NCBI RefSeq assembly: GCF_056746865.1
Contig: NZ_CM163382.1
DNA: 64,000 bases
Strand: one strand, 5' to 3'
In this document: in pieces, positions 1,076 to 43,282 of the stretch
Position numbering within the stretch: position 1 is the stretch's first letter
Layout of the letters: every line of letters begins with the position of its first letter
Notes under the pieces: generated by a model
What the model was told of the DNA's origin: nothing
Database searches by the model: none
What the model saw: the letters and a program-made list of their open reading frames with translations, nothing else
Made by a program: the position numbers and the translations under genes

Positions 1076-1866
1076 TTAACGTCCCCTGTGTTACCTTTCG
1101 TTTTATCACGAGCAATAAGCTGGCTGGCAATTACCATCACCAGCGACAGCACCAGTAATATGGTTGCCAGCGCGTTAACTTCCGGCGATACGCCGACTTT
1201 GACCATCGAATAAATTTTTAACGGCAGAATTTCATAGCTTGGTCCGGTGACGAACGAAGAAACTACTACATCGTCCATCGACAGGGTAAAGCTTAACACC
1301 CAGCCCGCCGCTACCGCTGGCATTGCCAGTGGCAGAATGATTTTTCGCAGAATGGTAAATTCGCTGGCACCGAGATCTTTCGCCGCTTCCAGCATTCGCA
1401 CGTCAAAACCTTTCAGGCGCGAATACACTGTCACCACCACAAATGGCAGGCAGAAGGTGATATGCGAGAACAGCAGCGACCAGAAGCCAAGCTGAATACC
1501 CAGCAGCATAAACAGCACCAGCAGAGAAATCGCCATCACAATATCTGGCGACATCATCACCACAAACAGCATTCCGCTAACGAATGGCTTACCGCGAAAG
1601 CGATAACGGTACAGCGCAACTGCAGTCAGTGAACCGATAAGCGTAGCAAACGTCGCTGAAAACACCGCCATCGTCAATGAATGCTGAGCTGCCTGCAACA
1701 GACTGTCGTTGTTCATCAGCAGGCTATACCATTTAGTGGTAAAACCCTGCCAGTTGATGCCAAAGCGCGAGCTGTTAAAGGAGTTCACAATCAAAATAAT
1801 GATTGGGATATACAGGTACGCGTAGATAGCGGTCATAAAACCGCCGCGAAGCAGTCGACCGATCAT
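1072..1866 (-). CDS. potC: Spermidine/putrescine ABC transporter permease
   Basis: 264-aa polytopic membrane ORF; stop overlaps potD start; RBS GAAGGTGG upstream of the ATG. Confidence 0.92.
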   Translation of the reverse strand: MIGRLLRGGFMTAIYAYLYIPIIILIVNSFNSSRFGINWQGFTTKWYSLLMNNDSLLQAAQHSLTMAVFSATFATLIGSLTAVALYRYRFRGKPFVSGMLFVVMMSPDIVMAISLLVLFMLLGIQLGFWSLLFSHITFCLPFVVVTVYSRLKGFDVRMLEAAKDLGASEFTILRKIILPLAMPAVAAGWVLSFTLSMDDVVVSSFVTGPSYEILPLKIYSMVKVGVSPEVNALATILLVLSLVMVIASQLIARDKTKGNTGDVK

Positions 1867-1874
1867 TCGAGTTC

Positions 1875-1887
1875 CACCTTCTTATTC
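1875..1887. other. Prophage attachment site core, int-proximal (attL); 13-bp CACCTTCTTATTC
   Basis: Exact 13-bp direct repeat of 44579..44591; lies between the potC start and the integrase gene. Confidence 0.6.
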
Positions 1888-2032
1888 ATAAGGCGGGACA
1901 CTTTCAGGATTTTGAATTTATTCAATTTTTCCCTTTCTCCAAAATCTCTCCAAAACGTTTCCCCAAAACTAGGCCACGCATTTTACAACACTTTTTTCCT
2001 GAGATGGTGACGGATATTCCATATGGTGTTTG

Positions 2033-3151
2033 TCAAATAACCAACTTAACCCATTCCTGACCTCGAGTATCGTTATAGCGATCGGTGGTTGCCTGGACTT
2101 TATGTCCTAGTAATGTTTTTGTATCGATACCCTGTGCACGGTACAGCCGTTCTGATAGAGAGCGTTGTTCATGAAATGTTGGCGGAGTTTTTCCTGCTGG
2201 TGGAATTATCCCAGCCAGATCCCGTGCTTTGGCAAAGTAGTCGCTCAGGTTGTCTTTACTCATCGGCTTCGGTTGTTTCTGGTGCCGACTATGGATTAGA
2301 TATGGACTTAATATTCTGTCTCGGCACCCATCAATAACTTCTTTTAACGTTATCCCAATGGCATCACAGCGTAGTGTAAGCGGTAACGCCAGACGCATTC
2401 CGGTTTTTCCCTGGGTGATATGCAAGTGTTCGTTCCACACATCTGAAAAACGCATGTGGCAAATGTCATCACGGCGCTGACCAGTAACAATCGCAAGAAG
2501 CATTGCGTTACGGATAAAGTGTTTTTCAGGCGTTGCATTGTAAATTTTTTGCCAGTCTTCCATGGTGAGCCTGGCTCTGGTTACTTTAGGGATCGGTTTA
2601 CGGGTAGCCTCCGGAGGATTCCATCCAGGAGGAACTTCCCCTGCATGCTGTGCTTCTTTATAAATATCAACCCATAATCCACGATTTACTCTCGCTGTGC
2701 TGACCATGTCTTTATCCAGCCACTCATCCAGTATTAATGCAAAGTCTCTTACTTCCAGTTCTTTCAATGGGTGGTTTCCCAGACGGGAAACCAGGTATGC
2801 AGCCATTCGAGTTTTTTCTTTGTGAGTTGTAGCTGCAATATCTCCATTTTTCAGTCGCGTGTTCTGTATTTTCAGATATCGATCAACCCATGCCTTTAAT
2901 CTGATACCCCGACGTTTTGTTGCTGACGGACTTTCATCAATTTTGCGCATGAAATATTCAGCTTCTGCTGCAGCTATTCGCTGATTGGCTGTGGAAGCGA
3001 TTTTTTCTGCCTTACCTTTGTCTGTTCCGAGTCCGTGAAATTTTCCAGTCACAGGATTTTTATACTGGTAGTAAACTCTGCCAGTTCTGCGATCAAACTT
3101 TTCGTAAAGACCGGCTACGTCAGTGCTGTTTTTTCGTGGCCTCGGTGACAT
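2033..3151 (-). CDS. int: Phage tyrosine integrase (lambda Int family)
   Basis: 372 aa; C-terminal LLGHKVQATTDRYNDTRGQEWVKL resembles the lambda Int catalytic tail; adjacent to att core. Confidence 0.9.
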   Translation of the reverse strand: MSPRPRKNSTDVAGLYEKFDRRTGRVYYQYKNPVTGKFHGLGTDKGKAEKIASTANQRIAAAEAEYFMRKIDESPSATKRRGIRLKAWVDRYLKIQNTRLKNGDIAATTHKEKTRMAAYLVSRLGNHPLKELEVRDFALILDEWLDKDMVSTARVNRGLWVDIYKEAQHAGEVPPGWNPPEATRKPIPKVTRARLTMEDWQKIYNATPEKHFIRNAMLLAIVTGQRRDDICHMRFSDVWNEHLHITQGKTGMRLALPLTLRCDAIGITLKEVIDGCRDRILSPYLIHSRHQKQPKPMSKDNLSDYFAKARDLAGIIPPAGKTPPTFHEQRSLSERLYRAQGIDTKTLLGHKVQATTDRYNDTRGQEWVKLVI

Positions 3152-3389
3152 GAGTTAAAATCTCCTTCAGTGCATCATCATCGCCAGTATGAATTTCCGG
3201 CGCAATTCCCGTTTCACCAGGCCCAACAAATACTGCTCGGCGATCTATCAGCCAACGCCCACGAATTTTTTGTGGTCTTGGAACGATGTATCCTAGTTTT
3301 CCGTATTTCACCAGGGTAGTGTTTGTTATTGGGAGACTGAACCGTTTTGGTTTCCACTCGTCGAGCGTTATCAGGTACTGTTCGCTCAT
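3120..3389 (-). CDS. xis: Excisionase (Xis-like)
   Basis: Small basic ORF directly upstream of int and overlapping it; GGAG 8 nt before the ATG at 3389 (track ORF extends to a GTG at 3398). Confidence 0.65.
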   Translation of the reverse strand: MSEQYLITLDEWKPKRFSLPITNTTLVKYGKLGYIVPRPQKIRGRWLIDRRAVFVGPGETGIAPEIHTGDDDALKEILTHVTEATKKQH

Positions 3390-3450
3390 GGCTATCACTC
3401 CGGAACGCGCCAGTTGCAGAATATCAACGACAACTGGCGACGGTTGAACA

Positions 3451-5889
3451 TTAAAAATCAGCCTGACTCGGGATCAGTTTTTGCCAGATAACTGAAACGT
3501 ATTTTGCCTGGTAACGGGCGTCATCAAGTGCATTATGGCGCTCACCTTCGAATGGAATAGCCGTTCTGGCATCGAAGTCTATGGCTTTCCCCAGCTCAAC
3601 GATTGTGCGTACATCTCGATCGTTGTAGTAACGCCACGGGCAGGGGATCCCCTGCCGTTCGTATGAACGGCGCAAAATCGTGTTGTCGAAGTTGGCTCCA
3701 TTTCCCCAGACCTGAACAAAAAATTCACCGGAGTTTTCGTCGATAAATTCCCGCAATTGTAACAGTGCATCATCTAACGGGATTTCATCGGTCATAATGG
3801 CAGATTGCGCTTCGCGTGATTGCTTAAGCCACCATTTAATGGTGTCCCGATCAATGACCCCGCCAGCAGTTTCCAGATCGATAGTCTTACTAAATTCCGG
3901 TCCCATATCTCCGGTTTGCGGATCGAAAAATATTGCACCTATTGAGATGATCGGGGCATCAGGATTTTTTCCCATGGTTTCAAGGTCGATCATTAGATGG
4001 TCACACGTCCTGCTGGTGGATGTGATAACGTGATGACCGTTCACCGTAATTAAGGGATCTGCCGTCTCGCCAGTTTCACTATCGCTGGCGTGATCCTGAG
4101 CGCTGCCAGCATTCTCCTTGTGTGGATGTTCAGCGCCTTCCATTTCCTTCGGATCATTTTCCTGAACTTCAACCTGATTCTCTTCATCGAATGTTTCCTG
4201 GTATGTTGCGTCGCCCATCACCGCGCCACAATCAGGGCAGTTGCCGCCGCCGGTCTGACCGCAGGCGGTGCAGATCTTTTCCGGTTCCTGTTGCACTACT
4301 GGTTCAGGTTGTTTCGTTTCTGGCTCGTTTTGTAACGCATTTGGGCTGTTTTGTTCCGCTTTCTGGTCGTTCTGTTCCGATTCTTGCTGGTTCTGGTTTA
4401 CAGAATCGCGGGTTTCAATCCCCTTTACCCATTTCGGATCATTCGGGTCGCTAATCCCTGCAACAAATTCTCCGCGAGAGGCAGCAAGCAACTTATCGGC
4501 GTCAGGCTGGCTGATATTGGCTGCCTGCATAATTTTGTTTACTTCGTCAGCGGTAACTTTTACCTGTGACTTGTCATCCAGCGGCTGCGGGTCCTGATGA
4601 TGTTCAACTGTATCCGCTGCCATTGTTTCAGCCGTTGCCTGTTCATCTGCCATTGCGCCAGATGGTTGCGGGTTATCTTCATCATTTTTTTCTTCTTCTG
4701 TTTTGCACTCAGCAGCCAGTCCGCCGTTAATTTCTTCCAGGATATCTTTTTCCGGTGTATGCCGGGCAGCCATGAGCGTTTCAGCTGTGGGATTCTCGTG
4801 ATCAGTTTCTGTCAGGTTGGCATTGATATACCCCTGAAGGCGCCCCGGGTAGTGATAAAACTCAGGGTGGGCGCTTCGGATAAGTGCAAAAATAGCTGCG
4901 CGGGAATAGTCCAGGATACCAGGGGTTGCGCGAAGTGCTGCGGACCATTCCCTGAACGGACTTTCTTTTTTCAGGACGATTTCTTTTGCGCGACGATAAA
5001 CGCTGCCCGGAATTTCATAAATATTAAAATCCATCGGAAGTGTGGCTGCTGCAATCTCCACATCCAGCGCATCGAAGGTGTGTACTAAATTCGGATTGCG
5101 ATCGGTTTTGTTCCCGCCACCGGCATTTGCACCGGAAGCCGTACGGGTGATACGCGAAACACGATTTCCTTTCATCCACTCTTTTGTCAGCAGACCCCGA
5201 TCAGTGTAATCAGCGTCCAGGTATGCCTCGAAAAAAGCAGTTATCAGTCCCAGGTCTGAATTACCGGGATTAGGGAAAACTTTGTCAGTGTCGCGTACCA
5301 GTTTGTGAAGGTCGCGAATCTCCAGCGGGTCGAGCAGCTTTGTTTTGTGAGAAATGGCCAGGGCAGTAACAGCCGGCAGTTCTTCCGCCCGTGCTATATG
5401 TAATGCCTGAAGTTCTTCCCGTGCAACGTGCGTTACTGGTTTTTCGCTGCTGTGTTGCGCAAGCCAGCGAATGGGCAGCTCCTGACCAGAAACCGGCAGG
5501 AGCATATTCTCCTCAATCTCCGTCATGTCTTCGCCGTTGACGTTGGTATTGTCAGTACTGGCTGGTTTCTCCTGCACGGAGGGAGAGGGCGCGATAAATA
5601 CCATTGTAATGCCATCTTCCCCGCCTTTTTCGTATCGGTTGCAGAATTCGGTATCAAACACGCCTTCAGGTGGAAGGTCATTCACAACGGGTAAATGGAC
5701 GCGAACGGGTTTTTTAAAGTCGTCTTCATCATAATCGTTGTCATCCATTGCGGTAATGCAGCGGGAGATGGCAACAGATAATTTTTTTGCTGTAGTCCAG
5801 TAAAAACCACCTTTAATTCCCAGACGTTTTCTGACTTTGTCATTTTTTGCTTCGCAATATAGCGCAAATTCTTCTTTATCAGTGCTCAT
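3451..5889 (-). CDS. Large prophage exonuclease-like protein (DEDDh-type 3'-5' exonuclease C-terminal domain, acidic linker, Cys4 zinc ribbon)
   Basis: 812 aa; C-terminal motifs [23 protein letters not shown] resemble DnaQ-like Exo I/II/III; CTACG...CPDCG zinc ribbon; position equivalent to recE/exo in lambdoid early-left operons. Confidence 0.6.
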
Positions 5890-5981
5890 TGATAAACCTC
5901 ATTACAGATTTAAGGGTGAACAAATCCCTGCCATTGCTGGCATTTTTAATCCGTTGGTATGGTGTTAATATGGCTGGAGGG

Positions 5982-6170
5982 TTATCCAGCCGGTGTTTCG
6001 TTATTCAGGTACAGCGATACTTTTTTTACCGGGAGGCATTCACCAGAAATTTTTTGCTCGTCTCTTGCCTGGAGGCAGGATTCTTTACTGGCATAAATTC
6101 CGGTAATCACATTCTGTGATTCACCCGTTATAAGAAAAACCGTCATCATCAGTGCAAATGCTGAAGTCAT
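5982..6170 (-). CDS. ydfD: YdfD-like small protein
   Basis: 62-aa ORF immediately downstream of dicB-like gene, as in the Qin dicB operon; N-terminal hydrophobic stretch. Confidence 0.45.
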   Translation of the reverse strand: MTSAFALMMTVFLITGESQNVITGIYASKESCLQARDEQKISGECLPVKKVSLYLNNETPAG

Positions 6171-6355
6171 TGACGCTCTCCGAAAATACCAAGTTCAAGA
6201 AGAGCAATTCGGGAAAGTATGGAATTATCATTGAGCAGATAAGGCTCATATTTCCTCATATTAATGGCATCTTCAGTAAACTCCCGGTTACTGAGCAGAA
6301 CACCAATATCAAAACAACCTTCAGACGTATTAACGTTTGGTAATAACGTTTCCAT
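6167..6355 (-). CDS. dicB: DicB-like cell-division inhibitor
   Basis: 62 aa, METLLPNVNTSEGCFDIGV...FTEDAIN closely matches the DicB N-terminus as recalled; sits downstream of a DicF-like sRNA. Confidence 0.75.
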   Translation of the reverse strand: METLLPNVNTSEGCFDIGVLLSNREFTEDAINMRKYEPYLLNDNSILSRIALLELGIFGERQ

Positions 6356-6532
6356 TATCGCGTCCTCAACAATGAATTTTGTGATGCAGTGCCTGGTGCC
6401 TCCAGGTGACGTTAACCAGTTAACAATTAACGCCGGGTTAGTTGATGCTCGTTACGCCAGTAAAAGACCGCCTTACTGCTTTAACTGTTCCGCGTGCGCA
6501 TAGCCGCATTCACCGCATCACAAAATTCACTT

Positions 6533-6590
6533 TAAAAAGGGCGGCAGAGCAGTCACGGAGTAAAACTGATACCGCCAAACGTCACCAGAA
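6533..6590 (-). ncRNA. dicF: DicF small RNA (ftsZ-targeting sRNA) with intrinsic terminator
   Basis: Minus-strand sequence TTTCTGGTGACGTTTGGCGGTATCAGTTTTACTCCGTGACTGCTCTGCCGCCCTTTTT matches DicF as recalled; GC hairpin plus T-run; conserved position upstream of dicB. Confidence 0.75.
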
Positions 6591-6895
6591 AATTGATAAC
6601 AGAGGGCGTTGCAGCGGGGTTGTCACTTAAGCGTATGGTCAACCTGACAACCCGGTGTCCTCAACGGGGAAGGAATAACCCCGTCATACTTACCGCCGCG
6701 CCATTTCGCGGAGTGTCACAACCGGAAGCGCACGGTCGACGAAAATTTAACGACAGGCTATCTATGAACCAGCTACCTCGCCGTGCGCTTTCGCGTTATG
6801 GTCTGACTTTTCATGGAAATATCCTTTCAGTAAACTGTCAGTGCCGGATTCTTATCCGTGTCCGGCGCACGCACTCTACCTCACCTGTGAATAAA

Positions 6896-7270
6896 TTAAT
6901 GATTAATTGATATTTTGTTGTTTGATTCAACTTTCCCATCGGATGTGTGATGCTTTAAATCACAGGAATTAATACTGCTTGCTGTAAAATGATTTTCAAG
7001 GGGAGCTATTCGAATCCCTTTCTTTTTCATTAACAAGCCAAATCCTTTATTAATGATGTCCATTAATTCCAGAAAGTATTTTTCATGTAAATCCTGGTTA
7101 TCAGAGAGCTGCTTCTCTTCGTACAGCCCGATAAAGGCTCGGCGTACGTTACCGGATATATTGTCGATGGTTTCTTTTTCTACGGTACTCAGGTCAAGAG
7201 TCGCCAGTTGAGAGCGAACCACATTCGCTGCCATTTCCTGGAATGGCATTGGTAAATCTTTAAATTCCAT
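6896..7270 (-). CDS. Hypothetical protein, 124 aa
   Basis: ORF in the early-left operon between ydfC-like gene and dicF; no recognisable motif. Confidence 0.4.
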   Translation of the reverse strand: MEFKDLPMPFQEMAANVVRSQLATLDLSTVEKETIDNISGNVRRAFIGLYEEKQLSDNQDLHEKYFLELMDIINKGFGLLMKKKGIRIAPLENHFTASSINSCDLKHHTSDGKVESNNKISINH

Positions 7271-7292
7271 TATTAGCCTCGTTGGTTAGCTA

Positions 7293-7511
7293 TTAACGCG
7301 GGTATGTAATCATTCTGGCAATGCTTAATGCCGCTGCTTTTTCCAGCCTGGTGATATCCTGCTCCAGAGCGGACAGATTTTCAGCCTGCTTAGCCCTGGC
7401 TTCATTGGCCCATTTCAGGTCCTGCGCAGCCTTAATTTTCTGGTGTATCCACTCATAAAGTTCATCATCGGTATAGTCTGGCGCGATGATGACGGGTTCT
7501 CGTTTCTGCAT
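7293..7511 (-). CDS. ydfC: YdfC-like protein
   Basis: 72 aa; operon position after ydfA/ydfB homologues as in Qin. Confidence 0.5.
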   Translation of the reverse strand: MQKREPVIIAPDYTDDELYEWIHQKIKAAQDLKWANEARAKQAENLSALEQDITRLEKAAALSIARMITYPR

Positions 7512-7540
7512 ACTGATTCCTCGCGGTGCTGTTTCGCTTA

Positions 7541-7669
7541 TCAGCCGTTAGATTTTGCCGAACTGGAAAGCGCCTGTTTAAACTCACTGAAGCTGAGGGC
7601 TTCTTCGCCTTCGGCAAGGCCTTCGAAGTATTCTTCGTAAGCCTTTTCCATGATTGTGTTGAAATCCAT
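7541..7669 (-). CDS. ydfB: YdfB-like small protein (42 aa)
   Basis: Minus-strand ORF MDFNTIMEKAYEEYFEGLAEGEEALSFSEFKQALSSSAKSNG found by manual translation; below the 60-aa track cutoff. Confidence 0.5.
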   Translation of the reverse strand: MDFNTIMEKAYEEYFEGLAEGEEALSFSEFKQALSSSAKSNG

Positions 7670-7670
7670 A

Positions 7671-7826
7671 TCACTCACCTGAGTTTCTTTCCAGCCAGCG
7701 ACGGGCACCATTTTCGGTTTTAAACGTTTTGCTTTTGGTATACGTCATCGCGGTGAACGTACCGTCCTGGTTGGGGAACACGCCACATACCAGAGATTCG
7801 CTGTTGCCAAGATCGATAGTATCCAT
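7671..7826 (-). CDS. ydfA: YdfA-like small protein (51 aa)
   Basis: Internal Met of track ORF 7671..7907 (MDTIDLGNSESLV...); GAGG RBS upstream; first gene of the leftward early operon. Confidence 0.5.
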   Translation of the reverse strand: MDTIDLGNSESLVCGVFPNQDGTFTAMTYTKSKTFKTENGARRWLERNSGE

Positions 7827-8070
7827 GCTGACCTCATTTCCCCTTAACGCCGGGGTAGCGGAACAAAAACCTGCTGCATAGTTATTAAAGTTGAACCCTG
7901 CCGTCATGTTCTTACGCCTCGGGCTGGCTACTTAACCCCTGACCACTGCCGGGTAACTCGAAGTATTTCCCTGCGTTCTGTGGGGCGGGGTGGGTTGGTA
8001 TGTTGTTAATGTAACAAGAGTTACCTTTCGAGTCAATACAATGTTGCAAAAGGTACATTTGAGGGCATAA

Positions 8071-14897: not shown

Positions 14898-15155
14898 ATA
14901 CAGCGAACGCCATTGGTTTAGTTGGATATTTACTGTGCCGGACAAAAACGGTTTGCGGGGAAATCTTAGTTAAGTAGAATGACTGCGGGTGCTTGAGGCT
15001 ATCTGTCTCAGGCATGAACACCAAAAGGCAGATAGAGAAAAGCCCCAGTTAACATTACGCGTCCTGCAAGACGCTTAACATTAATCTGAGGCCATATCTA
15101 TGCGACACATAGAGATTAGCCTCTTACGGACCGAAAGGTCAAGGAGAAGCAGGCT

Positions 15156-15311
15156 ATGAAGCAGCAAAAGGCGATGTTAATCGCCCTGATCGTCATCTGT
15201 TTAACCGTCATAGTGACGGCACTGGTAACGAGGAAAGACCTCTGCGAGGTACGAATCCGAACCGGCCAGACGGAGGTCGCTGTCTTCACAGCTTACGAAC
15301 CTGAGGAGTAA
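15156..15311 (+). CDS. hok: Hok/Gef-family type I toxin
   Basis: 51 aa MKQQKAMLIALIVICLTVIVTALVTRKDLCEVRIRTGQTEVAVFTAYEPEE, Hok-like TM helix plus CE(I/V)R motif; AAGGAG RBS; short overlapping upstream leader ORF (mok-like). Confidence 0.85.
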   Translation: MKQQKAMLIALIVICLTVIVTALVTRKDLCEVRIRTGQTEVAVFTAYEPEE

Positions 15312-16814: not shown

Positions 16815-17174
16815 ATGCTCATAGATTTGGTTTTACCTTACCCGCCGACGGTGAACACTTACTGGCGACGCCGTGGCAGCACATATTTTATTTCGGAGGA
16901 GGGAAAGCGTTATCGCCGGGCTGTGGCGCTTATTGTTCGCCAGCAGCGGCTGAAATTAAGCCTGTCCGGAAGGCTGGCGATAAAGGTGATTGCAGAGCCA
17001 CCGGATAAGCGTCGTCGCGACCTGGACAATATCCTGAAAGCACCGCTGGATGCGCTGACGCATGCGGGAGTGTTAATGGACGATGAGCAGTTTGATGAAA
17101 TCAATATTGTACGTGGTCAGCCAGTATCTGGTGGACGGCTGGGTGTGAAGATTTACAAAATTGAGAGTGAGTGA
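16815..17174 (+). CDS. rusA: Holliday junction resolvase RusA
   Basis: 119 aa; LPYPPTVNTYWRRRG and RRRDLDN motifs match RusA. Confidence 0.9.
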   Translation: MLIDLVLPYPPTVNTYWRRRGSTYFISEEGKRYRRAVALIVRQQRLKLSLSGRLAIKVIAEPPDKRRRDLDNILKAPLDALTHAGVLMDDEQFDEINIVRGQPVSGGRLGVKIYKIESE

Positions 17175-17737
17175 GCGTAAATATGATATATCCGGAAATT
17201 ACAGGCAAAAGCGGCGAGCATTTACGTCTAAAAACGCTGGAAGCAGTCTGGATCCAGGGGAAATTACGGATGTGGGGGCGGTGGCCGTATATTGGCGGCG
17301 GTAAGACGGGAAATATGTTCAACCAATTACTGACCTCTAAAAAGCTGACAAAAACGGCAATTAACGAGGCGCTCCGGAGGATGAAAAAAGCTGGTCTGGA
17401 CAAACCTGAACTTGAGGCTTTTTTGCGGGATATGATCAACGGCAATCAAAAAAGCTGGCTGGCACATTGTACCGATTCAGAGGCGTTAATAATCGACAGG
17501 GTTATTGGTGAAGTCCTGGCAGGCTATCCCGGGCTGCTCAATGTCCTGAGTCAGCGTTATGTGGGGCGGGGGATGACTAAGCGCAAAATGGCTGAACTGC
17601 TGAATGATGCACACCCGGAATGGAGTTTAAGAACCTGTGAAAGACGCATTGAGCATTGGCTAAAGGTGGCAGAATTTATTTTGTACAAACCAATGGTTAT
17701 GGCTTTTGGTATAGAGAAAAAAGTTATTGCTTTTTGA
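17171..17737 (+). CDS. Q: Late antitermination protein Q (lambdoid Q-like)
   Basis: 188 aa directly after rusA and followed by a strong intrinsic terminator (tR'-like). Confidence 0.65.
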   Translation: MSVNMIYPEITGKSGEHLRLKTLEAVWIQGKLRMWGRWPYIGGGKTGNMFNQLLTSKKLTKTAINEALRRMKKAGLDKPELEAFLRDMINGNQKSWLAHCTDSEALIIDRVIGEVLAGYPGLLNVLSQRYVGRGMTKRKMAELLNDAHPEWSLRTCERRIEHWLKVAEFILYKPMVMAFGIEKKVIAF

Positions 17738-17814
17738 CGTAAAAACTGCTTCAATTCCGGTACGCTTCGCAAAGCTGTACCACGAGGCGAATAGCAGACA
17801 TGGACATTTGAAAG

Positions 17815-17839
17815 AGCCCGCTTTTTGCGGGTTTTTTTA
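17815..17839 (+). terminator. tR'-like intrinsic terminator downstream of Q
   Basis: GCCCGC-ttttt-GCGGG hairpin followed by TTTTTTT. Confidence 0.65.
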
Positions 17840-17961
17840 TGCCTGAAAAACGGCACAGAACATTAAACGCGCTGGTGGTTGCGAATACCGGTCTTTCAGC
17901 TTGCTGGCTTTTCCGACAAGAGTTATTGGTATGTTACGTTAACCAGAAAAGGGAAAAAGAC

Positions 17962-18159
17962 ATGCTAAAACAGCAGGATATGACCGAAACCGCCAGAGTG
18001 GTGTTTAATGAGTTAAGCGTCACCGAACCGGCGACAGTCGGGGAGATTGCACAGAATACTTACCTTTCACGCGAACGCTGCCAGTTAATACTGACCCAGC
18101 TTGTTATGGCGGGTCTGGCAGACTATCAGTTTGGTTGTTACAGACACCTTCAGTCCTGA
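17962..18159 (+). CDS. Hypothetical small wHTH-like protein
   Basis: Internal Met MLKQQDMTETARV...; motif TVGEIAQNTYLSRERCQLILTQL; followed by hairpin plus T-run at 18147..18173. Confidence 0.35.
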   Translation: MLKQQDMTETARVVFNELSVTEPATVGEIAQNTYLSRERCQLILTQLVMAGLADYQFGCYRHLQS

Positions 18160-18295
18160 AGGCTTTTTTATTTGTGGTAAATGGGCGGCTGGTGGGTGTG
18201 GTGGTAGACTGGCCCCCTGAATCTCCAGACAACCAATATCACTTATTTAAGTGATAGTCTTAATACTAGTTTTTAGACTAGTCATTGGAGAACAG

Positions 18296-18661
18296 ATGAT
18301 TGATGTCTTAGGGCCGGAGAAACGCAGACGGCGTACCACACAGGAAAAGATCGCAATTGTTCAGCAGAGCTTTGAACCGGGGATGACGGTCTCCCTCGTT
18401 GCCCGGCAACATGGTGTAGCAGCCAGCCAGTTATTTCTCTGGCGTAAGCAATACCAGGAAGGAAGTCTTACTGCTGTCGCCGCCGGAGAACAGGTTGTTC
18501 CTGCCTCTGAACTTGCTGCCGCCATGAAGCAGATTAAAGAACTCCAGCGCCTGCTCGGCAAGAAAACGATGGAAAATGAACTCCTCAAAGAAGCCGTTGA
18601 ATATGGACGGGCAAAAAAGTGGATAGCGCACGCGCCCTTATTGCCCGGGGATGGGGAGTAA
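18296..18661 (+). CDS. insC: IS2 transposase OrfA (InsC)
   Basis: [40 protein letters not shown]... matches InsC. Confidence 0.9.
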
Positions 18662-19524
18662 GCTTAGTCAGCCGTTGTCTCCGGGTGTCGCGTGCGCAGT
18701 TGCACGTCATTCTCAGACGAACCGATGACTGGATGGATGGCCGCCGCAGTCGTCACACTGATGATACGGATGTGCTTCTCCGTATACACCATGTTATCGG
18801 AGAGCTGCCCACGTATGGTTATCGTCGGGTATGGGCGCTGCTTCGCAGACAGGCAGAACTTGATGGTATGCCTGCGATCAATGCCAAACGTGTTTACCGG
18901 ATCATGCGCCAGAATGCGCTGTTGCTTGAGCGAAAACCTGCTGTACCGCCATCGAAACGGGCACATACAGGCAGAGTGGCAGTGAAAGAAAGTAATCAGC
19001 GATGGTGCTCTGACGGGTTCGAGTTCCGCTGTGATAACGGAGAAAAACTGCGAGTCACGTTCGCGCAGGACTGCTGTGACCGTGAGGCACTGCACTGGGC
19101 GGTCACTACGGGCGGCTTCAACAGTGAAACAGTACAGGACGTCATGCTGGGAGCGGTGGAACGCCGCTTCGGCAACGAGCTTCCGGCGTCTCCAGTAGAG
19201 TGGCTGACGGATAATGGTTCATGCTACCGGGCTAATGAAACACGGCAGTTTGCCCGGATGTTGGGGCTTGAACCGAAGAGCACGGCGGTGCGGAGTCCGG
19301 AGAGTAACGGCATAGCAGAGAGCTTCGTGAAAACGATAAAGCGTGACTACATCAGTGTCATGCCCAAACCAGACGGGTTAACGGCAGCAAAGAACCTTGC
19401 AGAGGCGTTCGAGCATTATAACGAATGGCATCCGCATAGTGCACTGGGTTATCGCTCGCCACGGGAATATCTACGGCAGCAAGCCAGTAATGGGTTAAGT
19501 GATAACAGGTGTCTGGAAATATAG
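18619..19524 (+). CDS. insD: IS2 transposase OrfB (InsD), DDE domain
   Basis: 301-aa ORF overlapping orfA in -1 frame, typical IS3-family frameshift arrangement. Confidence 0.9.
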
Positions 19525-19879
19525 GGGCAAATCCAGGTGGTTGTTGCTTTCCCGTTGCTGAAAAAGAAAACGCCAGACTGTTAGCCGGGTATCAGTTATC
19601 TGGAGAAATTTTTAAATACCTCACAATTCAGGCGGTTGACTGTTGTCTGGTTTGCGGGGAGTTTGTTAAAAGAAACTGGCATGGTGAATCCCCCTGTGCG
19701 GAGGGGCAATCAGCAACTGGTGTTTTGTCACCGACCCTTATCCTTTCTGTGCGGGTTCAGGTGCTGATACTGAACTCACCGGGAGGCACCCGGCATCATG
19801 CAATGGCACATAGCGCCACTCTCCAGCCCCTCTCCGGAGGGGCTGTTTATATTGATTTTGTCAGATGTGAGTAAACTCC

Positions 19880-20215
19880 TTATGGACTTTGTTGTTTTAG
19901 TCCATAAGGACATATTTGCAGAGTGCAACGGTTATTAAAGCATTCATTCAATACGTTATCTGTATTTGTAGGACATTCCTGGCTGTTTTTGATTAAATTC
20001 CAGAATGTTTTATTGAATGGTACTACGTTGTAAATGGTTAAAGGTAGCACTTTGTTATTGAGCATGATACCTGTGTGAGTCAGTGTAAATATACTTTCAG
20101 GAGGTAAGAAAGCATCCGATTGATACCAGATTATTAATTTTATTTTACTCCATATGACTGAAAAAGATATTCCGCATGATGGCTGGATAACTGTATCAAT
20201 CACAATCCACTTCAT
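19880..20215 (-). CDS. IraM-like anti-adaptor protein paralogue (prophage-borne)
   Basis: 111 aa, [22 protein letters not shown]...ICPYGLK; alignable over full length with the chromosomal iraM at 57426..57749; AT-rich. Confidence 0.7.
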
Positions 20216-20460
20216 TTAGTTTCCTTGTTTATGTCTTGCTGGTGATGTTCTGAAAAGTATAAATGATATTTTTGAATGTAAACCATAGAGCAGAATTATT
20301 TTTCTGATGTTGTTTATTGTTTATTTAAATGCAGGGTGGTTTATATCTCGTCTTGTAGTTTATCCATGCATATCTGCTTGATGATGAGGTTTTTATTTAA
20401 GGTATGGTTTTGTGTTTTTTCTGTATTACATGTCAGGTATTTTAAAGAATTATTTTTCAG

Positions 20461-22437
20461 ATGGTGGAAAGAACCATGGCATTTAAACACTATGATGTTG
20501 TCAGGGCGGCATCGCCGTCAGACCTTGCGAAACGACTGACACAAAAACTGAAGGAGGGGTGGCAGCCATTTGGCAGTCCGGTGGCCATCACGCCTTATAC
20601 CCTGATGCAGGCCATTGCGGCGGAAGGTGATGTCACCACACCTGTGGTGGTGAAGCCGTCGGATGGAGAAGGCGCAGTTATCAGCACCACCAGCAACCCG
20701 GAGTATTACTTTGTTGTTGCCCTGGCCGGGCAGTCAAACGGTATGGCGTATGGTGAAGGGCTTCCGCTGCCGGAGACATATGACCGTCCGGACCCGCGTA
20801 TTAAACAGCTGGCGCGTCGCAGCACTGTCACGCCGGGTGGTGCGTCCTGTAACTACAATGACATTATTCCTGCGGACCACTGCCTGCATGATGTTCAGGA
20901 TTTGAGTAAGTTTTCACACCCGAAAGCCAGCGCAGCTCAGTATGGATGCGTGGGGCAGGGATTACATATCGCGAAGAAATTGTTGCCGTTTATTCCGGCG
21001 AATGCCGGTATTCTTCTGGTTCCGTGCTGCCGTGGTGGTTCTGCATTTTTGGCGGGCGATGAAGGTACCTTCAGCGAATCCACCGGCGCAAGCGAGACCT
21101 CGGCACGCTGGGGTGTAGATAAGCCACTGTACAAGGACCTGCTTACCCGTACTCAGGCCGCACTGAAGGCCAACCCTAAAAATATTCTGCTTGCAGTGGT
21201 CTGGATGCAGGGCGAGTTTGATTTGAAACAGGGTGCATACGCCACTCAGCCGGGGCTGTTTGATTCCATGGTGGAAAAATATCGTTCTGACCTGTCGGAA
21301 TTCGGAGGTCAGTGTCTCGGGGGCTCTCCGTCATCAGTTCCCTGGATTTGTGGCGACACGACCTACTACTGGAAGCAGACTTATTCTTCGCAATACGATG
21401 CGGTGTATGGTGCATACAAGACGAAATCCGCAAAAAAAATCTTCTTTGTGCCGTTTATGACGGATGAAAACGGGCGAAATGTGGGTACCAACGAGCCGTC
21501 AGAAGATCCGGATGTTGCGGATATTGGGTATTACGGAGCCGGTGGTCGAACGGACGCCAAAACCTGGACGACGGCTGACCGTAAAACGCATTTTGGATCA
21601 TGGGCACGTCGTGGGATTATTTCCGACCGTCTGGCAACGGCGATTCTTGTGCATGCCGGGAGAAACGCTGAATTCATTACCGGAAAACAGCCTGATACGG
21701 TGAAGCCCACCGGACCTTCCGGTGAAGGTACGGAGAGAGAGCCGGGAGCCCCGGTCAGTAACCGAACCCTGATGAGTCTGCTGGCGTCCGGCGAAGACCT
21801 GGCATCACAGGGCTGGCGCTATTATCACAAACCGGCGAGCGGAGACAATGTTAACAAAAACATTGCTGAAGCGGTGGTCAGTGATGCGGGGGCTACGGGA
21901 GGTAAGGCCCTGCAACTGAATAAACCGGAAAACCACATCTGGTTTCTGGAGCATGATGCAGCCGGACAGGGAGTGGAGTTACTGAAGAAGGGGGGACGTG
22001 TGAGCGTACGGTTTAAGTTGCCGGGTTCACTGGTGCCGAATCAGTTTGCCCTGGGCATTTACTGGCAGTTGTCGTCCCTGCCGGAGGGAGTGACGCTGGC
22101 AGAGGAAGGCAACGACATGCTGATGTCCTTCTTTCTGCAGACGGATGCGACGAACCTGAACGCGATGCACCACAAGAAGCCGAATGCGAAGCTGGAAACG
22201 TTCGGGGTCTTTGATAACGGATGGCACACACTGGCTTTTGAGTTTGCCGGAAACAACAGCATTCAGGTGACGCCGGTACTGGATGAGAAACGGGGGACGC
22301 CGTTCACACTGGTGAAATCTCCGGCATCAGGGGCGGCGGACAAACTGCAACTGACAGGCATATCAAAGGCGGCGACATATACGCTGCTGATTGACAGTGT
22401 GAAGGTGGAAGTGAACAACGCGGACATCGCGGCATGA
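20461..22437 (+). CDS. nanS-p: NanS-p-type prophage sialate O-acetylesterase (SGNH hydrolase)
   Basis: 658 aa; N-terminal MAFKHYDVV (DUF1737-like), GQSN catalytic block; typical position downstream of Q in EHEC-type lambdoid prophages; likely start ATG 20476. Confidence 0.75.
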   Translation: MVERTMAFKHYDVVRAASPSDLAKRLTQKLKEGWQPFGSPVAITPYTLMQAIAAEGDVTTPVVVKPSDGEGAVISTTSNPEYYFVVALAGQSNGMAYGEGLPLPETYDRPDPRIKQLARRSTVTPGGASCNYNDIIPADHCLHDVQDLSKFSHPKASAAQYGCVGQGLHIAKKLLPFIPANAGILLVPCCRGGSAFLAGDEGTFSESTGASETSARWGVDKPLYKDLLTRTQAALKANPKNILLAVVWMQGEFDLKQGAYATQPGLFDSMVEKYRSDLSEFGGQCLGGSPSSVPWICGDTTYYWKQTYSSQYDAVYGAYKTKSAKKIFFVPFMTDENGRNVGTNEPSEDPDVADIGYYGAGGRTDAKTWTTADRKTHFGSWARRGIISDRLATAILVHAGRNAEFITGKQPDTVKPTGPSGEGTEREPGAPVSNRTLMSLLASGEDLASQGWRYYHKPASGDNVNKNIAEAVVSDAGATGGKALQLNKPENHIWFLEHDAAGQGVELLKKGGRVSVRFKLPGSLVPNQFALGIYWQLSSLPEGVTLAEEGNDMLMSFFLQTDATNLNAMHHKKPNAKLETFGVFDNGWHTLAFEFAGNNSIQVTPVLDEKRGTPFTLVKSPASGAADKLQLTGISKAATYTLLIDSVKVEVNNADIAA

Positions 22438-23332: not shown

Positions 23333-24226
23333 GTGATGAATAAAAAATATGAACTGGTTGTTAAGGGGATAAATAATTACGGGGATAAGGTTACTGTTAC
23401 TGTGAAGCCGGAAGGTGACGGGCAAGCGTCGCTGTTGTTGCCAGATGTGGCGATTAGTCTTGACCGTACTGAAGGTGCCACGCTGGAGTTTTACGAAGCT
23501 GAGGCGAAAAAGCAGGCGAAGCAGTTTTTCATGGATGTTGCTGCCGGGTTATGTGAATGGAACGAACCGTTGCCGGAAAAGCGCCCCGTAATTTTAGAGG
23601 CGCAGGATGTGTTGATAACCTACAAAGGAAAGCTACCGGGAAGAATTACTTGTTCTCTGAAGATGCCGCCGTCAACACTGCGGTCAGAAAAAGATGATGT
23701 TGAATCACGTATTGAAAAACTGGAGAGCTACGTCGTTGAGCTGAATAAGAAATGGTCGATATTGGTGCCTTCTGGCGATGAAAAGCAGTTTGCTGCGTTT
23801 GACGATTATTGTCGGAAAGTGATGAGCAGAAATCTCGCAGAGTGTTTCAGTATTCATAATGATAATTTCAGTGACCCGGAATGGGAGTGTAACCGGCCAT
23901 CCTTTGTTGTATCCGGTGATGCTGGGAAAATAACCATCTCAGAAAATGGGAAAGTAACACCTCCATCGCACCAGCACAGTGAGGAGCTCATTGAATTTGC
24001 CATTGATTACCTGAAGAACAATAAAAAGCAGGGGCTGATGAAGCGCGTTGGCCGTTGCATGGGATATCTTCAGGTAGCCGCTGAGATTGAAGCGCTGGCC
24101 AGTGGTGCTGATAAGGATGCAATTGTGCGGGAGGCTCTTCTTCGTGATTTTAATACTCCACCCTTTAAAAAAGTGCCGGCTTACTGGCTTCATCCGGGGC
24201 TGACTTATCTTAAAGTGCGTATTTAG
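23333..24226 (+). CDS. Unknown 297-aa protein inserted between holin and endolysin
   Basis: ORF begins 2 nt after holin stop (GTG 23333 / ATG 23336); no TM, no signal peptide, no motif recognised. Confidence 0.6.
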   Translation: MMNKKYELVVKGINNYGDKVTVTVKPEGDGQASLLLPDVAISLDRTEGATLEFYEAEAKKQAKQFFMDVAAGLCEWNEPLPEKRPVILEAQDVLITYKGKLPGRITCSLKMPPSTLRSEKDDVESRIEKLESYVVELNKKWSILVPSGDEKQFAAFDDYCRKVMSRNLAECFSIHNDNFSDPEWECNRPSFVVSGDAGKITISENGKVTPPSHQHSEELIEFAIDYLKNNKKQGLMKRVGRCMGYLQVAAEIEALASGADKDAIVREALLRDFNTPPFKKVPAYWLHPGLTYLKVRI

Positions 24227-24262
24227 TGGGCCAGGGACAGCGGCTGAATATTTAATATATCC

Positions 24263-24796
24263 ATGAACACCAAAATCAAATACGGCCTGTCGGCTGCCGT
24301 TCTGGCGCTGATTGCCGCTGGTGCGCCTGCGCCTGACATTCTCGACCAGTTTCTGGATGAAAAGGAAGGCAACCACACCACGGCATACCGTGATGGTGCA
24401 GGTATCTGGACCATCTGCCGTGGTGCCATCATGGTGGATGGCAAACCTGTCGTTCCGGGCATGAAGTTGTCGAAGGAAAAATGCGACCAGGTTAACGCCA
24501 TTGAGCGTGATAAAGCGCTGGCGTGGGTGGAGAAAAACATCAGAGTGCCGCTGACCGAACCCCAGAAAGCGGGGATCGCGTCATTCTGTCCGTACAACAT
24601 TGGTCCCGGTAAGTGTTTCCCGTCGACGTTTTACAGACGAATTAATGCAGGTGATCGAAAAGGTGCCTGCGAAGCGATTCGCTGGTGGATTAAGGACGGT
24701 GGCAGAGACTGCCGTATTCGTTCAAACAACTGTTACGGTCAGGTATCCCGTCGTGACCAGGAGAGCGCGCTGGCGTGCTGGGGTATCGACAGATAA
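24263..24796 (+). CDS. R: Endolysin R, lysozyme with N-terminal SAR (signal-anchor-release) segment
   Basis: 177 aa; YGLSAAVLALIAAGAPAPDIL SAR segment; EGNHTTAYRDGAGIWTICRG lysozyme catalytic region. Confidence 0.9.
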   Translation: MNTKIKYGLSAAVLALIAAGAPAPDILDQFLDEKEGNHTTAYRDGAGIWTICRGAIMVDGKPVVPGMKLSKEKCDQVNAIERDKALAWVEKNIRVPLTEPQKAGIASFCPYNIGPGKCFPSTFYRRINAGDRKGACEAIRWWIKDGGRDCRIRSNNCYGQVSRRDQESALACWGIDR

Positions 24797-33495: not shown

Positions 33496-34416
33496 ATGGG
33501 ATTGTTTACGACCCGCCAGTTACTCGGTTATACCGAACAAAAAGTGAAATTCCGTGCGCTGTTTCTGGAGCTGTTTTTCCGCCGTACGGTGAATTTCCAC
33601 ACCGAAGAGGTGATGCTGGACAAAATTACCGGAAAAACGCCGGTGGCGGCCTATGTCTCCCCAATCGTTGAAGGAAAAGTGCTTCGCCATCGCGGTGGTG
33701 AAACCCGCGTGTTACGTCCGGGCTACGTCAAGCCCAAACACGAATTTAGCACGCCGGAGGGGGAGCGGTATATCCCTTGTGTGAATATTTCCGCGGAGCC
33801 GGAGGCGTATTTTCGTATCGCACCGGAAGACTGGCTGCGGGCAGAGATGCAGGGGGAGATTGTGGCACTGGTCCACAGTCATCCCGGTGGGCTGCCCTGG
33901 CTGAGCGAGGCTGACCGGCGGCTGCAGATAAAAAGCGCACTGCCCTGGTGGCTGGTCTGCCGGGGTGACATTCACAAATTCCGCTGTGTGCCACATCTGA
34001 CGGGACGGCGCTTTGAGCACGGGGTGACGGACTGTTACACGCTGTTCCGGGATGCTTATCATCTGGCGGGGACTGAAATGCCGGATTTTCATCGCGAGGA
34101 TGACTGGTGGCGCAACGGCCAGAACCTGTACCTGGACAACCTGGCGGAAAACGGCTTTTGCCGGGTGTCTCCGTCCTCTGCACAGGCAGGCGATGTGCTG
34201 CTGTGCTGCTTTGGATCATCGGTGCCGAATCATGCCGCCGTTTACTGTGGTGACGGCGAGCTGCTGCACCATATTCCTGAACAACTGAGTAAACGGGAGA
34301 GGTATTCCGAAAAATGGCAACGACGAACGCATTCAGTCTGGCGTCACCGCCACTGGCACGCATCCGCCTTTACGGGGATTTACAACGATTTGGCCGCCGC
34401 CTCAGCCTGTATGTGA
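33496..34416 (+). pseudogene. In-frame chimera: N-terminal ~84 aa of major capsid protein E fused to C-terminal ~220 aa of tail protein K
   Basis: Residues 1-84 align with lambda gpE N-terminus (QLL...FRRTVNF...YVSPIV...PGYVKPKHE); remainder aligns with lambda gpK (STPEGERY.PCVNIS.EPEAYFR, HSHPGG JAMM motif); junction near 33745. Confidence 0.8.
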
Positions 34417-42698: not shown

Positions 42699-43282
42699 TG
42701 GCATTCAGAATGAGTGAACAACCACGGACCATAAAAATTTATAATCTGTTGTCCGGAACTAATGAATTTATTGGTGAAGGTGATGCATATATTCCGCCTC
42801 ATACAGGTCTGCCAGCAAACAGTACCGATATTGCACCGCCAGATATTCCGGCTGGCTTCGTGGCTGTTTTCAATAGTGATGAGTCATCGTGGCATCTCGT
42901 TGAAGACCATCGGGGTAAAACGGTTTATGACGTAGCGTCAGGGGACGAGTTATTTATTTCTGAACTCGGTCCGTTACCGGAAAATGTTACCTGGTTATCG
43001 CCGGAAGGGGAGTTTCAGAAGTGGAACGGCACAGCCTGGGTGAAGGATACGGAAGCAGAAAAACTGTTCCGGATCCGGGAGGCGGAAGAAACAAAAAACA
43101 ACCTGATGCAGGTAGCCAGTGAGCATATTGCGCCGCTTCAGGATGCTGCAGATCTGGAAATTGCAACGGAGGAAGAAACCTCATTGCTGGAAGCCTGGAA
43201 AAAGTATCGGGTGTTGCTGAACCGTGTTGATACATCAACTGCACCTGATATTGAGTGGCCTACGAACCCTGTCAGGGAGTAA
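42698..43282 (+). CDS. tfa: Tail fibre assembly protein Tfa
   Basis: 194 aa, [18 protein letters not shown]... as lambda Tfa. Confidence 0.9.

Follow-up and report, generated by a model that had tools for sequence, protein, structure and literature searches.

Identity and organization of the IS2 element

The stretch of DNA analysed here (the window) comprises 64,000 nucleotides of contig NZ_CM163382.1 and contains a single copy of IS2, a complete 1331-bp isoform of this IS3-family element that occupies positions 18205–19535 on the + strand. The element aligns to K-12 IS2A (NC_000913 381260-382590) with 28 mismatches and no gaps over 1331 bp (97.9% identity), which falls within the ISfinder convention for an isoform (identity above ~90%). 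Its outermost 41 bases at the start and 26 bases at the end are those of K-12 IS2A, without mismatch. The element opens at 18205 with TAGACTGGCCCCC (in a longer quotation, TAGACTGGCCCCCTGAATCTCC) and closes at 19535 with GGGGCAAATCCA. An earlier note, made from the sequence of the window alone, had described a complete 1331-bp IS2 with terminal repeats, and the alignment to K-12 IS2A and the matching ends bear this description out. The window copy is a known element, already annotated in RefSeq genomes with an identical locus, where it carries the label 'IS3 family transposase, programmed frameshift'.

The two ends form imperfect repeats that require one gap to align, as expected for IS2, for which repeat lengths of 42 and 41 bp have been described (PMC3299598). 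IRL (42 bp) spans 18205–18246 and IRR (41 bp), which bears the outward −35 element of Pjunc (PMC3299598; PMC9330008), spans 19495–19535, both on the + strand. Between them, orfA (18296–18661, +) encodes the 121-residue InsC/TnpA repressor, a protein identical to K-12 InsC (NCBIfam NF006928 at 276.4 bits, cut-off 229), and orfB (18619–19524, +) encodes the InsD catalytic part at its full length of 301 residues, with 9 substitutions relative to K-12 (NF006918 at 710.2 bits, cut-off 597). The two frames are joined by the −1 frameshift site A AAA AAG (A6G; 18613–18619, +), a motif described for IS2 (PMC3299598); reading on from this site in the −1 frame yields VDSARAL..., the start of OrfB.

One difference from K-12 lies at the inner edge of IRL, where IS positions 42–43 (18246–18247) are TT in the window and AA in K-12. 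The effect is that of inverting the two bases in the middle of the palindrome CACTTA-NN-TAAGTG, and the two positions fall inside residues 39–48, a stretch reported to contain the sequence bound by the OrfA repressor (PMC3299598). TT at these positions also occurs in strain B2.3, in an unrelated IS2 copy.

The variant is common. Copies at least 99% identical to that of the window are held in 886 records at many different loci, and copies at least 99.9% identical were found at many unrelated loci of other genomes. Judged from these sequence matches, the commonness of the variant suggests that it is active. Like the window copy, the other copies that we checked are flanked by 5-bp duplications.

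The prophage surrounding IS2

IS2 is located within a lambda-like prophage that is inserted between potC and potB and bounded by a 14-bp att core, CACCTTCTTATTCA, at 1875 and 44579. We derived the genetic context from our own searches and from how RefSeq annotates the two closest genomes, CFSAN061770 and EF5-18-41. On the 5' side of IS2 the order is RusA, a DUF1133 protein, a terminator, orf65 and a weak hairpin. On the 3' side it is STnc100, iraM (on the opposite strand), an esterase, holin, lysozyme, Rz, terminase and the head and tail genes. Like IS2, the Q-like gene and all of the holin, lysozyme, Rz, terminase, portal, capsid and tail genes lie on the + strand.

The DUF1133 protein (17183–17737, +; 184 aa) is the candidate Q-like antiterminator. 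It matches Pfam DUF1133 (4.6e-105) and PHROG 753, 'anti-termination protein Q-like' (9.4e-80), and it gave no match to NCBIfam. The earlier note had called it Q: the strong PHROG match favours that name, whereas the Pfam Phage_antitermQ match is weak (3.3e-6). A full-text literature search for DUF1133 returned no paper, and to our knowledge the protein has never been tried as an antiterminator. Downstream of the gene lies a strong tR'-like intrinsic terminator, a hairpin followed by U7 (17810–17838, +; −20.7 kcal/mol, z −4.09), and then orf65 (17962–18159, +), which encodes a 65-residue protein of PHROG 331 (function unknown). A hairpin scan marks a weak terminator-like hairpin at 18147–18172 (+). 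From the end of the strong terminator at 17838 to the start of IS2 is 367 bp, close to the ~360 bp originally estimated.

Promoter searches around the putative late leader were negative. A consensus scan of the + strand over 17000–20600 found no PR'-like site; on the + strand of 17550–17960 there was neither a sigma-70-like site matching at least 8 of 12 positions nor a good −10; looser scans of 17500–18205 returned nothing with both a good −10 and a −35; and neither a sigma-70-like promoter nor a Q-binding site was found between the DUF1133 gene and the terminator (17738–17810). The late promoter of this DUF1133 type of Q may be atypical. By gene order and synteny with characterised lambdoid phages, IS2 would lie inside the late transcript. 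The placement of IS2 in a late-operon leader downstream of Q and tR' thus stands as far as the terminator 367 bp upstream and the co-oriented late genes are concerned, but since no PR'-like promoter was found the term 'late-operon leader' is a statement about gene order.

The STnc100-family sRNA gene (19650–19854, +; Rfam RF02076 at 133.5 bits, gathering score 47) begins 114 bp beyond the end of IS2 and has a terminator hairpin of its own at 19824–19845 (−20.3 kcal/mol, z −4.4). A possible extended −10, TGtTAAAAG, lies at ~19664–19672, within the first 30 positions of the STnc100 model, and the true 5' end of the RNA may be near 19680. We considered whether STnc100 could be the short RNA between PR' and tR', which would put IS2 upstream of the late promoter, and rejected this assignment, because the STnc100 of Stx2 phages is situated downstream of stx2B, well within the late transcript (PMC12370729).

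Next to it on the − strand is a homologue of iraM (19880–20215; NCBIfam NF007393 at 161 bits, cut-off 121). In K-12 the iraM product is an anti-adapter that stabilises RpoS. The prophage homologue runs against the late genes and is typical moron cargo. The esterase gene that follows (20476–22437, +) is of the nanS-p type, with matches to the DUF1737, SASA and DUF6645 domains. IS2 therefore lies upstream of nanS-p and the lysis genes, as the earlier note had it, with the DUF1737 and SASA esterase, holin, lysozyme and Rz all downstream. Between holin and lysozyme (23336–24263) a YdfR-family gene is annotated as truncated and is followed by ~590 bp that are unannotated; this truncation is unrelated to IS2, because it is the same in relatives with an occupied and with an empty site.

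The insertion site

IS2 is flanked on the left (18200–18204) and on the right (19536–19540) by GGTGG, and the flanking repeat stops at 5 bp, with no extension to 6 bp or more. Two random 5-bp flanks match with a probability of 1/1024. Because a flank match alone thus has a chance of about 1/1000, proof of insertion rests chiefly on the empty site. In E. coli ST131 strain 2822 the left flank, one GGTGG and the right flank occur as an exact 110-nt string. The uninterrupted junction is present in 201 of the 5426 complete E. coli genomes (400-nt reconstructed empty site, coverage of at least 80%), in which GGTGG is single. A 3061-bp query spans 1725 bp in the empty-site genomes, exactly the 3061 bp less the element (1331 bp) and one copy of the duplication (5 bp). 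The occupied site was found in one piece, at 99.5–100% identity over the 3-kb junction, in 10 of the 5426 complete genomes. The re-reading of both flanks and the single GGTGG in empty-site relatives confirm the 5-bp duplication of the earlier note, and the comparisons with an IS2 reference (97.9% identity) and with prophages lacking the element (201 empty sites) both fit an insertion. IS3-family copy-out/paste-in transposition would have placed IS2 once into the target GGTGG.

Only one annotated feature is interrupted by IS2, a 24-codon ORF (18174–19584, +), which PGAP labels 'DUF3927 family protein' in empty-site genomes. IS2 splits it after codon 10, and a 15-residue remnant is annotated at 19537–19584. 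We considered the disruption of this ORF as a gene loss and rejected it, since the ORF has no visible resemblance to peptides of the DUF3927 family in related prophages; it is perhaps not a true gene.

An alignment of the region from Q to orf65 with two other prophages shows that a shared module begins right after each phage's own terminator and extends through orf65 up to GGCGGCTGGTGGGTGT, which ends at 18199. Beyond this position, a DNA methyltransferase gene and tRNA-Ile/Arg genes follow in the other prophages, and the STnc100 segment in the lineage of the window. Thousands of genomes have the orf65 and STnc100 modules apart from each other; the two overlap by ~10 bp, TGGTGGGTGT, at ~18190–18199. 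With separate genomes for the two halves and the overlap abutting the target, these sequence comparisons identify the IS2 target (18200–18204) as a mosaic joint between the orf65 module and the STnc100-iraM-esterase module, in a cargo slot. That this is the slot in which Stx phages carry tRNA or toxin genes, as had been proposed, finds support in the relatives with a methylase gene and tRNA-Ile/Arg and in the STnc100 gene downstream. In the window, the stretch from the Q-like gene to the esterase gene (17738–20476) holds no ORFs of note besides orf65, those of IS2 and iraM. No candidate ORF for stx lies in this interval, in agreement with the earlier note, and there are no tRNA genes in the window.

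Origin and probable spread of the insertion

Across the 3-kb junction region, identity among the occupied prophages is 99.5% or more, and their IS copies differ by 0–2 bases. They fall into two groups, one with the window, CFSAN061770 and EF5-18-41 and the other with Z0117EC0013, JKHS006 and others, whose IS copies are 2 bases apart. We profiled the divergence between the window and Z0117EC0013 in 1-kb bins. The chromosome to the left of the prophage differs by 1.6–2.3%, with the last difference at 1735, and the chromosome to the right differs by 1–3%, with dense differences from 44702. In contrast, the prophage differs by no more than ~0.1–0.3%, with zero differences from 1736 to 8010 and 0–0.3% in most of its 1-kb bins. 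On both sides the shift occurs within ~150 bp of the 14-bp att core. The simplest reading of these profiles is that one prophage, with IS2 already aboard, integrated site-specifically into two divergent hosts.

The ten occupied sites could instead mark an insertion hot spot, that is, repeated independent insertions of IS2 at GGTGG. IS2 does occur at different sites of the same Q-to-lysis interval in other prophages, as a hot spot would lead one to expect, but these other insertions come from a search that links pieces on the same strand only and is silent on site preference. All ten occupied sites share position, orientation and IS2 variant (0–2 differences) and belong to one close prophage clade, and in 201 genomes the site is empty. 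Given these empty sites, independent insertion at the same base and in the same orientation in two groups is unlikely, and we regard a hot spot as highly improbable.

The other insertions in this interval number three, are independent and lie in other E. coli prophages. They are found in the gap between iraM and the esterase gene (L007, ~4590–5920), directly upstream of orf65 (L008, ~3110–4440) and within a DUF1327/YdfR gene (L009, 5347–6677). All three are co-oriented, and we considered an orientation bias of IS2 on this account; we rejected it, as the search links only same-strand pieces and the three insertions are uninformative on either site or orientation preference.

If the prophage spread after the insertion, then IS2 did not abolish the ability of the phage to spread. 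Helper phage late proteins could have served this spread, which therefore need not have required the prophage's own late genes to work with IS2 in place. A restored full-length prophage with IS2 would measure ~50.5 kb, near the packaging ceiling of lambda (~105% of 48.5 kb) and within it. Among the sequences of the phage collection we found no sequenced virion with the insertion of the window, only phages with IS2 at other sites.

The prophage copy in the window

The window lacks 7836 bp that are present in both of the closest genomes, CFSAN061770 and EF5-18-41. At the junction (33748, in the interval 33496–34416), the first 84 codons of the major capsid gene run in frame into a gpK-like C40 peptidase gene at its codon 26, and the genes lost are those for head completion and the tail shaft. 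We sought this junction in the complete E. coli genomes of the collection and found it in none. The 7.8-kb deletion could be real or an assembly error; if it is real, the copy in the window cannot make particles, whatever IS2 does. A failure of phage production in the source strain, whose prophage lacks these 7.8 kb of capsid-to-tail genes, would therefore not be attributable to IS2.

Other features of the two prophages are recorded here for completeness. CFSAN061770 carries an IS4 at the position corresponding to ~5928–5939 of the window, which lacks it; the 12-base overlap fits the size of an IS4 target duplication. Further Rfam matches in the window are DicF (6539–6590, −), which adjoins dicB; sok (14987–15158, +), which adjoins hokD (15156–15311); and IS009 (43041–43239, +).

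Possible consequences of IS2 for transcription

We conclude that a single intact IS2 probably inserted once at the GGTGG mosaic joint of a potB/potC lambda-like prophage, where it would be tolerated and would create no fusion promoter. The element would be essentially a passenger, with no credible gene hit, and the prophage could still have spread once it had acquired IS2.

The orientation of IS2 with the late transcript had been noted before, and it is indeed co-oriented with the Q-like, lysis and morphogenesis genes. The earlier note also suggested that IS2 could be polar on Q-dependent late expression. In its strong form, IS2 in the late leader would stop late transcription through its Rho-dependent terminators, and the prophage would be locked in and decay. 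IS2 contains such terminators and is a classic source of Rho-dependent polarity, as in galEP3 (PMC3737525), and the element stands between the Q-like gene and all of the lysis and morphogenesis genes. The nearest copies of the prophage are in fact decayed, with frameshifted small genes, the IS4 in CFSAN061770 and the 7.8-kb deletion in the window. Against this, the second occupied group (Z0117EC0013, JKHS006) is without such decay, and the IS-bearing prophage is shared by two host backgrounds whose divergence stops sharply near the att core. Q-lambda, moreover, suppresses polarity, and complexes with Q show high processivity (PMC12360218). Even without the IS, a Q-modified polymerase would have to pass the hairpins at 17810–17838 and 19824–19845 and the weak site at 18147. 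If late transcription begins upstream of IS2, such a polymerase would pass the Rho-dependent terminators of IS2 as well, as it does with Q-lambda at polar insertions. We therefore consider a polar block quite unlikely. Strong polarity is not borne out, given the suppression of polarity by Q-lambda (PMC12360218) and the evident spread of the prophage after insertion; the suggestion of polarity is probably wrong here, or the effect weak at most.

The opposite kind of effect would be a mobile promoter, in which STnc100 or the esterase gene is switched on in the lysogen by the outward −35 of IRR or by transcripts that start at an IS2 promoter and read out of the element. The −35 of the IS2 IRR has made fusion promoters at ampC, acrEF and neo (PMC9330008), and in the window IRR faces STnc100 at a distance of 114 bp. 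A scan of the junction, however, shows that the right flank, GGTGGTTGTTGC, is without a −10-like hexamer at a spacing of 16–18 bp, the promoter scan of 17000–20600 returned no site on the + strand, and PIRL of IS2 is described as weak (PMC3299598). The idea thus seems far-fetched, and from the junction and promoter scans we infer that IS2 creates no fusion promoter.

An IS2 in the late transcript of a still-infectious phage might amount to a natural demonstration of terminator- and Rho-resistant transcription by a DUF1133 Q-like protein, a speculation that we think unlikely to hold. If it did, prophage induction would drive a read-through burst of the IS2 transposase genes, tying the mobility of IS2 to induction. 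Public strains include matched prophages with and without IS2 at this site, which lend themselves to a natural test of the suppression of IS2 polarity by a DUF1133 Q-like protein.

Comparison with known systems

Few insertion sequences are as well studied as IS2, and the copy in the window matters little beyond bookkeeping; the insertion marks one prophage clade (10 of the 5426 complete genomes). The window copy and K-12 IS2A (insC1/insD1) share their length of 1331 bp, termini, OrfA protein, A6G site and a 5-bp duplication, which is ATTAC in K-12 and GGTGG here. They differ at 28 bases (2.1%), mainly in the distal half of orfB, with 9 amino acid changes as the result; the differences include the AA to TT change at IS positions 42–43.

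Other phages and prophages carry IS2 at sites different from that of the window. The element disrupts an nleG-like effector gene in the Stx2a phages Stx2a_1447 and WGPS2, and the propagated phage PhiR11_1 also carries IS2. The three other insertions in the Q-to-lysis interval belong to strains Ec-2844, E275a and DETEC-E223. None of these IS2 copies occupies the GGTGG joint that separates orf65 from STnc100.

The slot itself resembles that of Stx-converting phages, with the shared order of a Q-type gene, terminator, cargo, STnc100, nanS-p-type esterase and holin. In Stx2 phages stx2B is followed by STnc100 75 nt downstream (PMC12370729), whereas here IS2 is the sole cargo, without stx, tRNA or methylase gene.

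In its placement the insertion is like galEP3, in which IS2 lies at the start of the gal operon and serves as a standard reporter of Rho polarity: a promoter region, then IS2, then co-oriented genes (PMC3737525). The polymerase that meets IS2 in gal is unmodified, whereas any late transcript here would be made by a Q-type antiterminated complex, and a complex of this kind is expected to disregard such terminators (PMC12360218).
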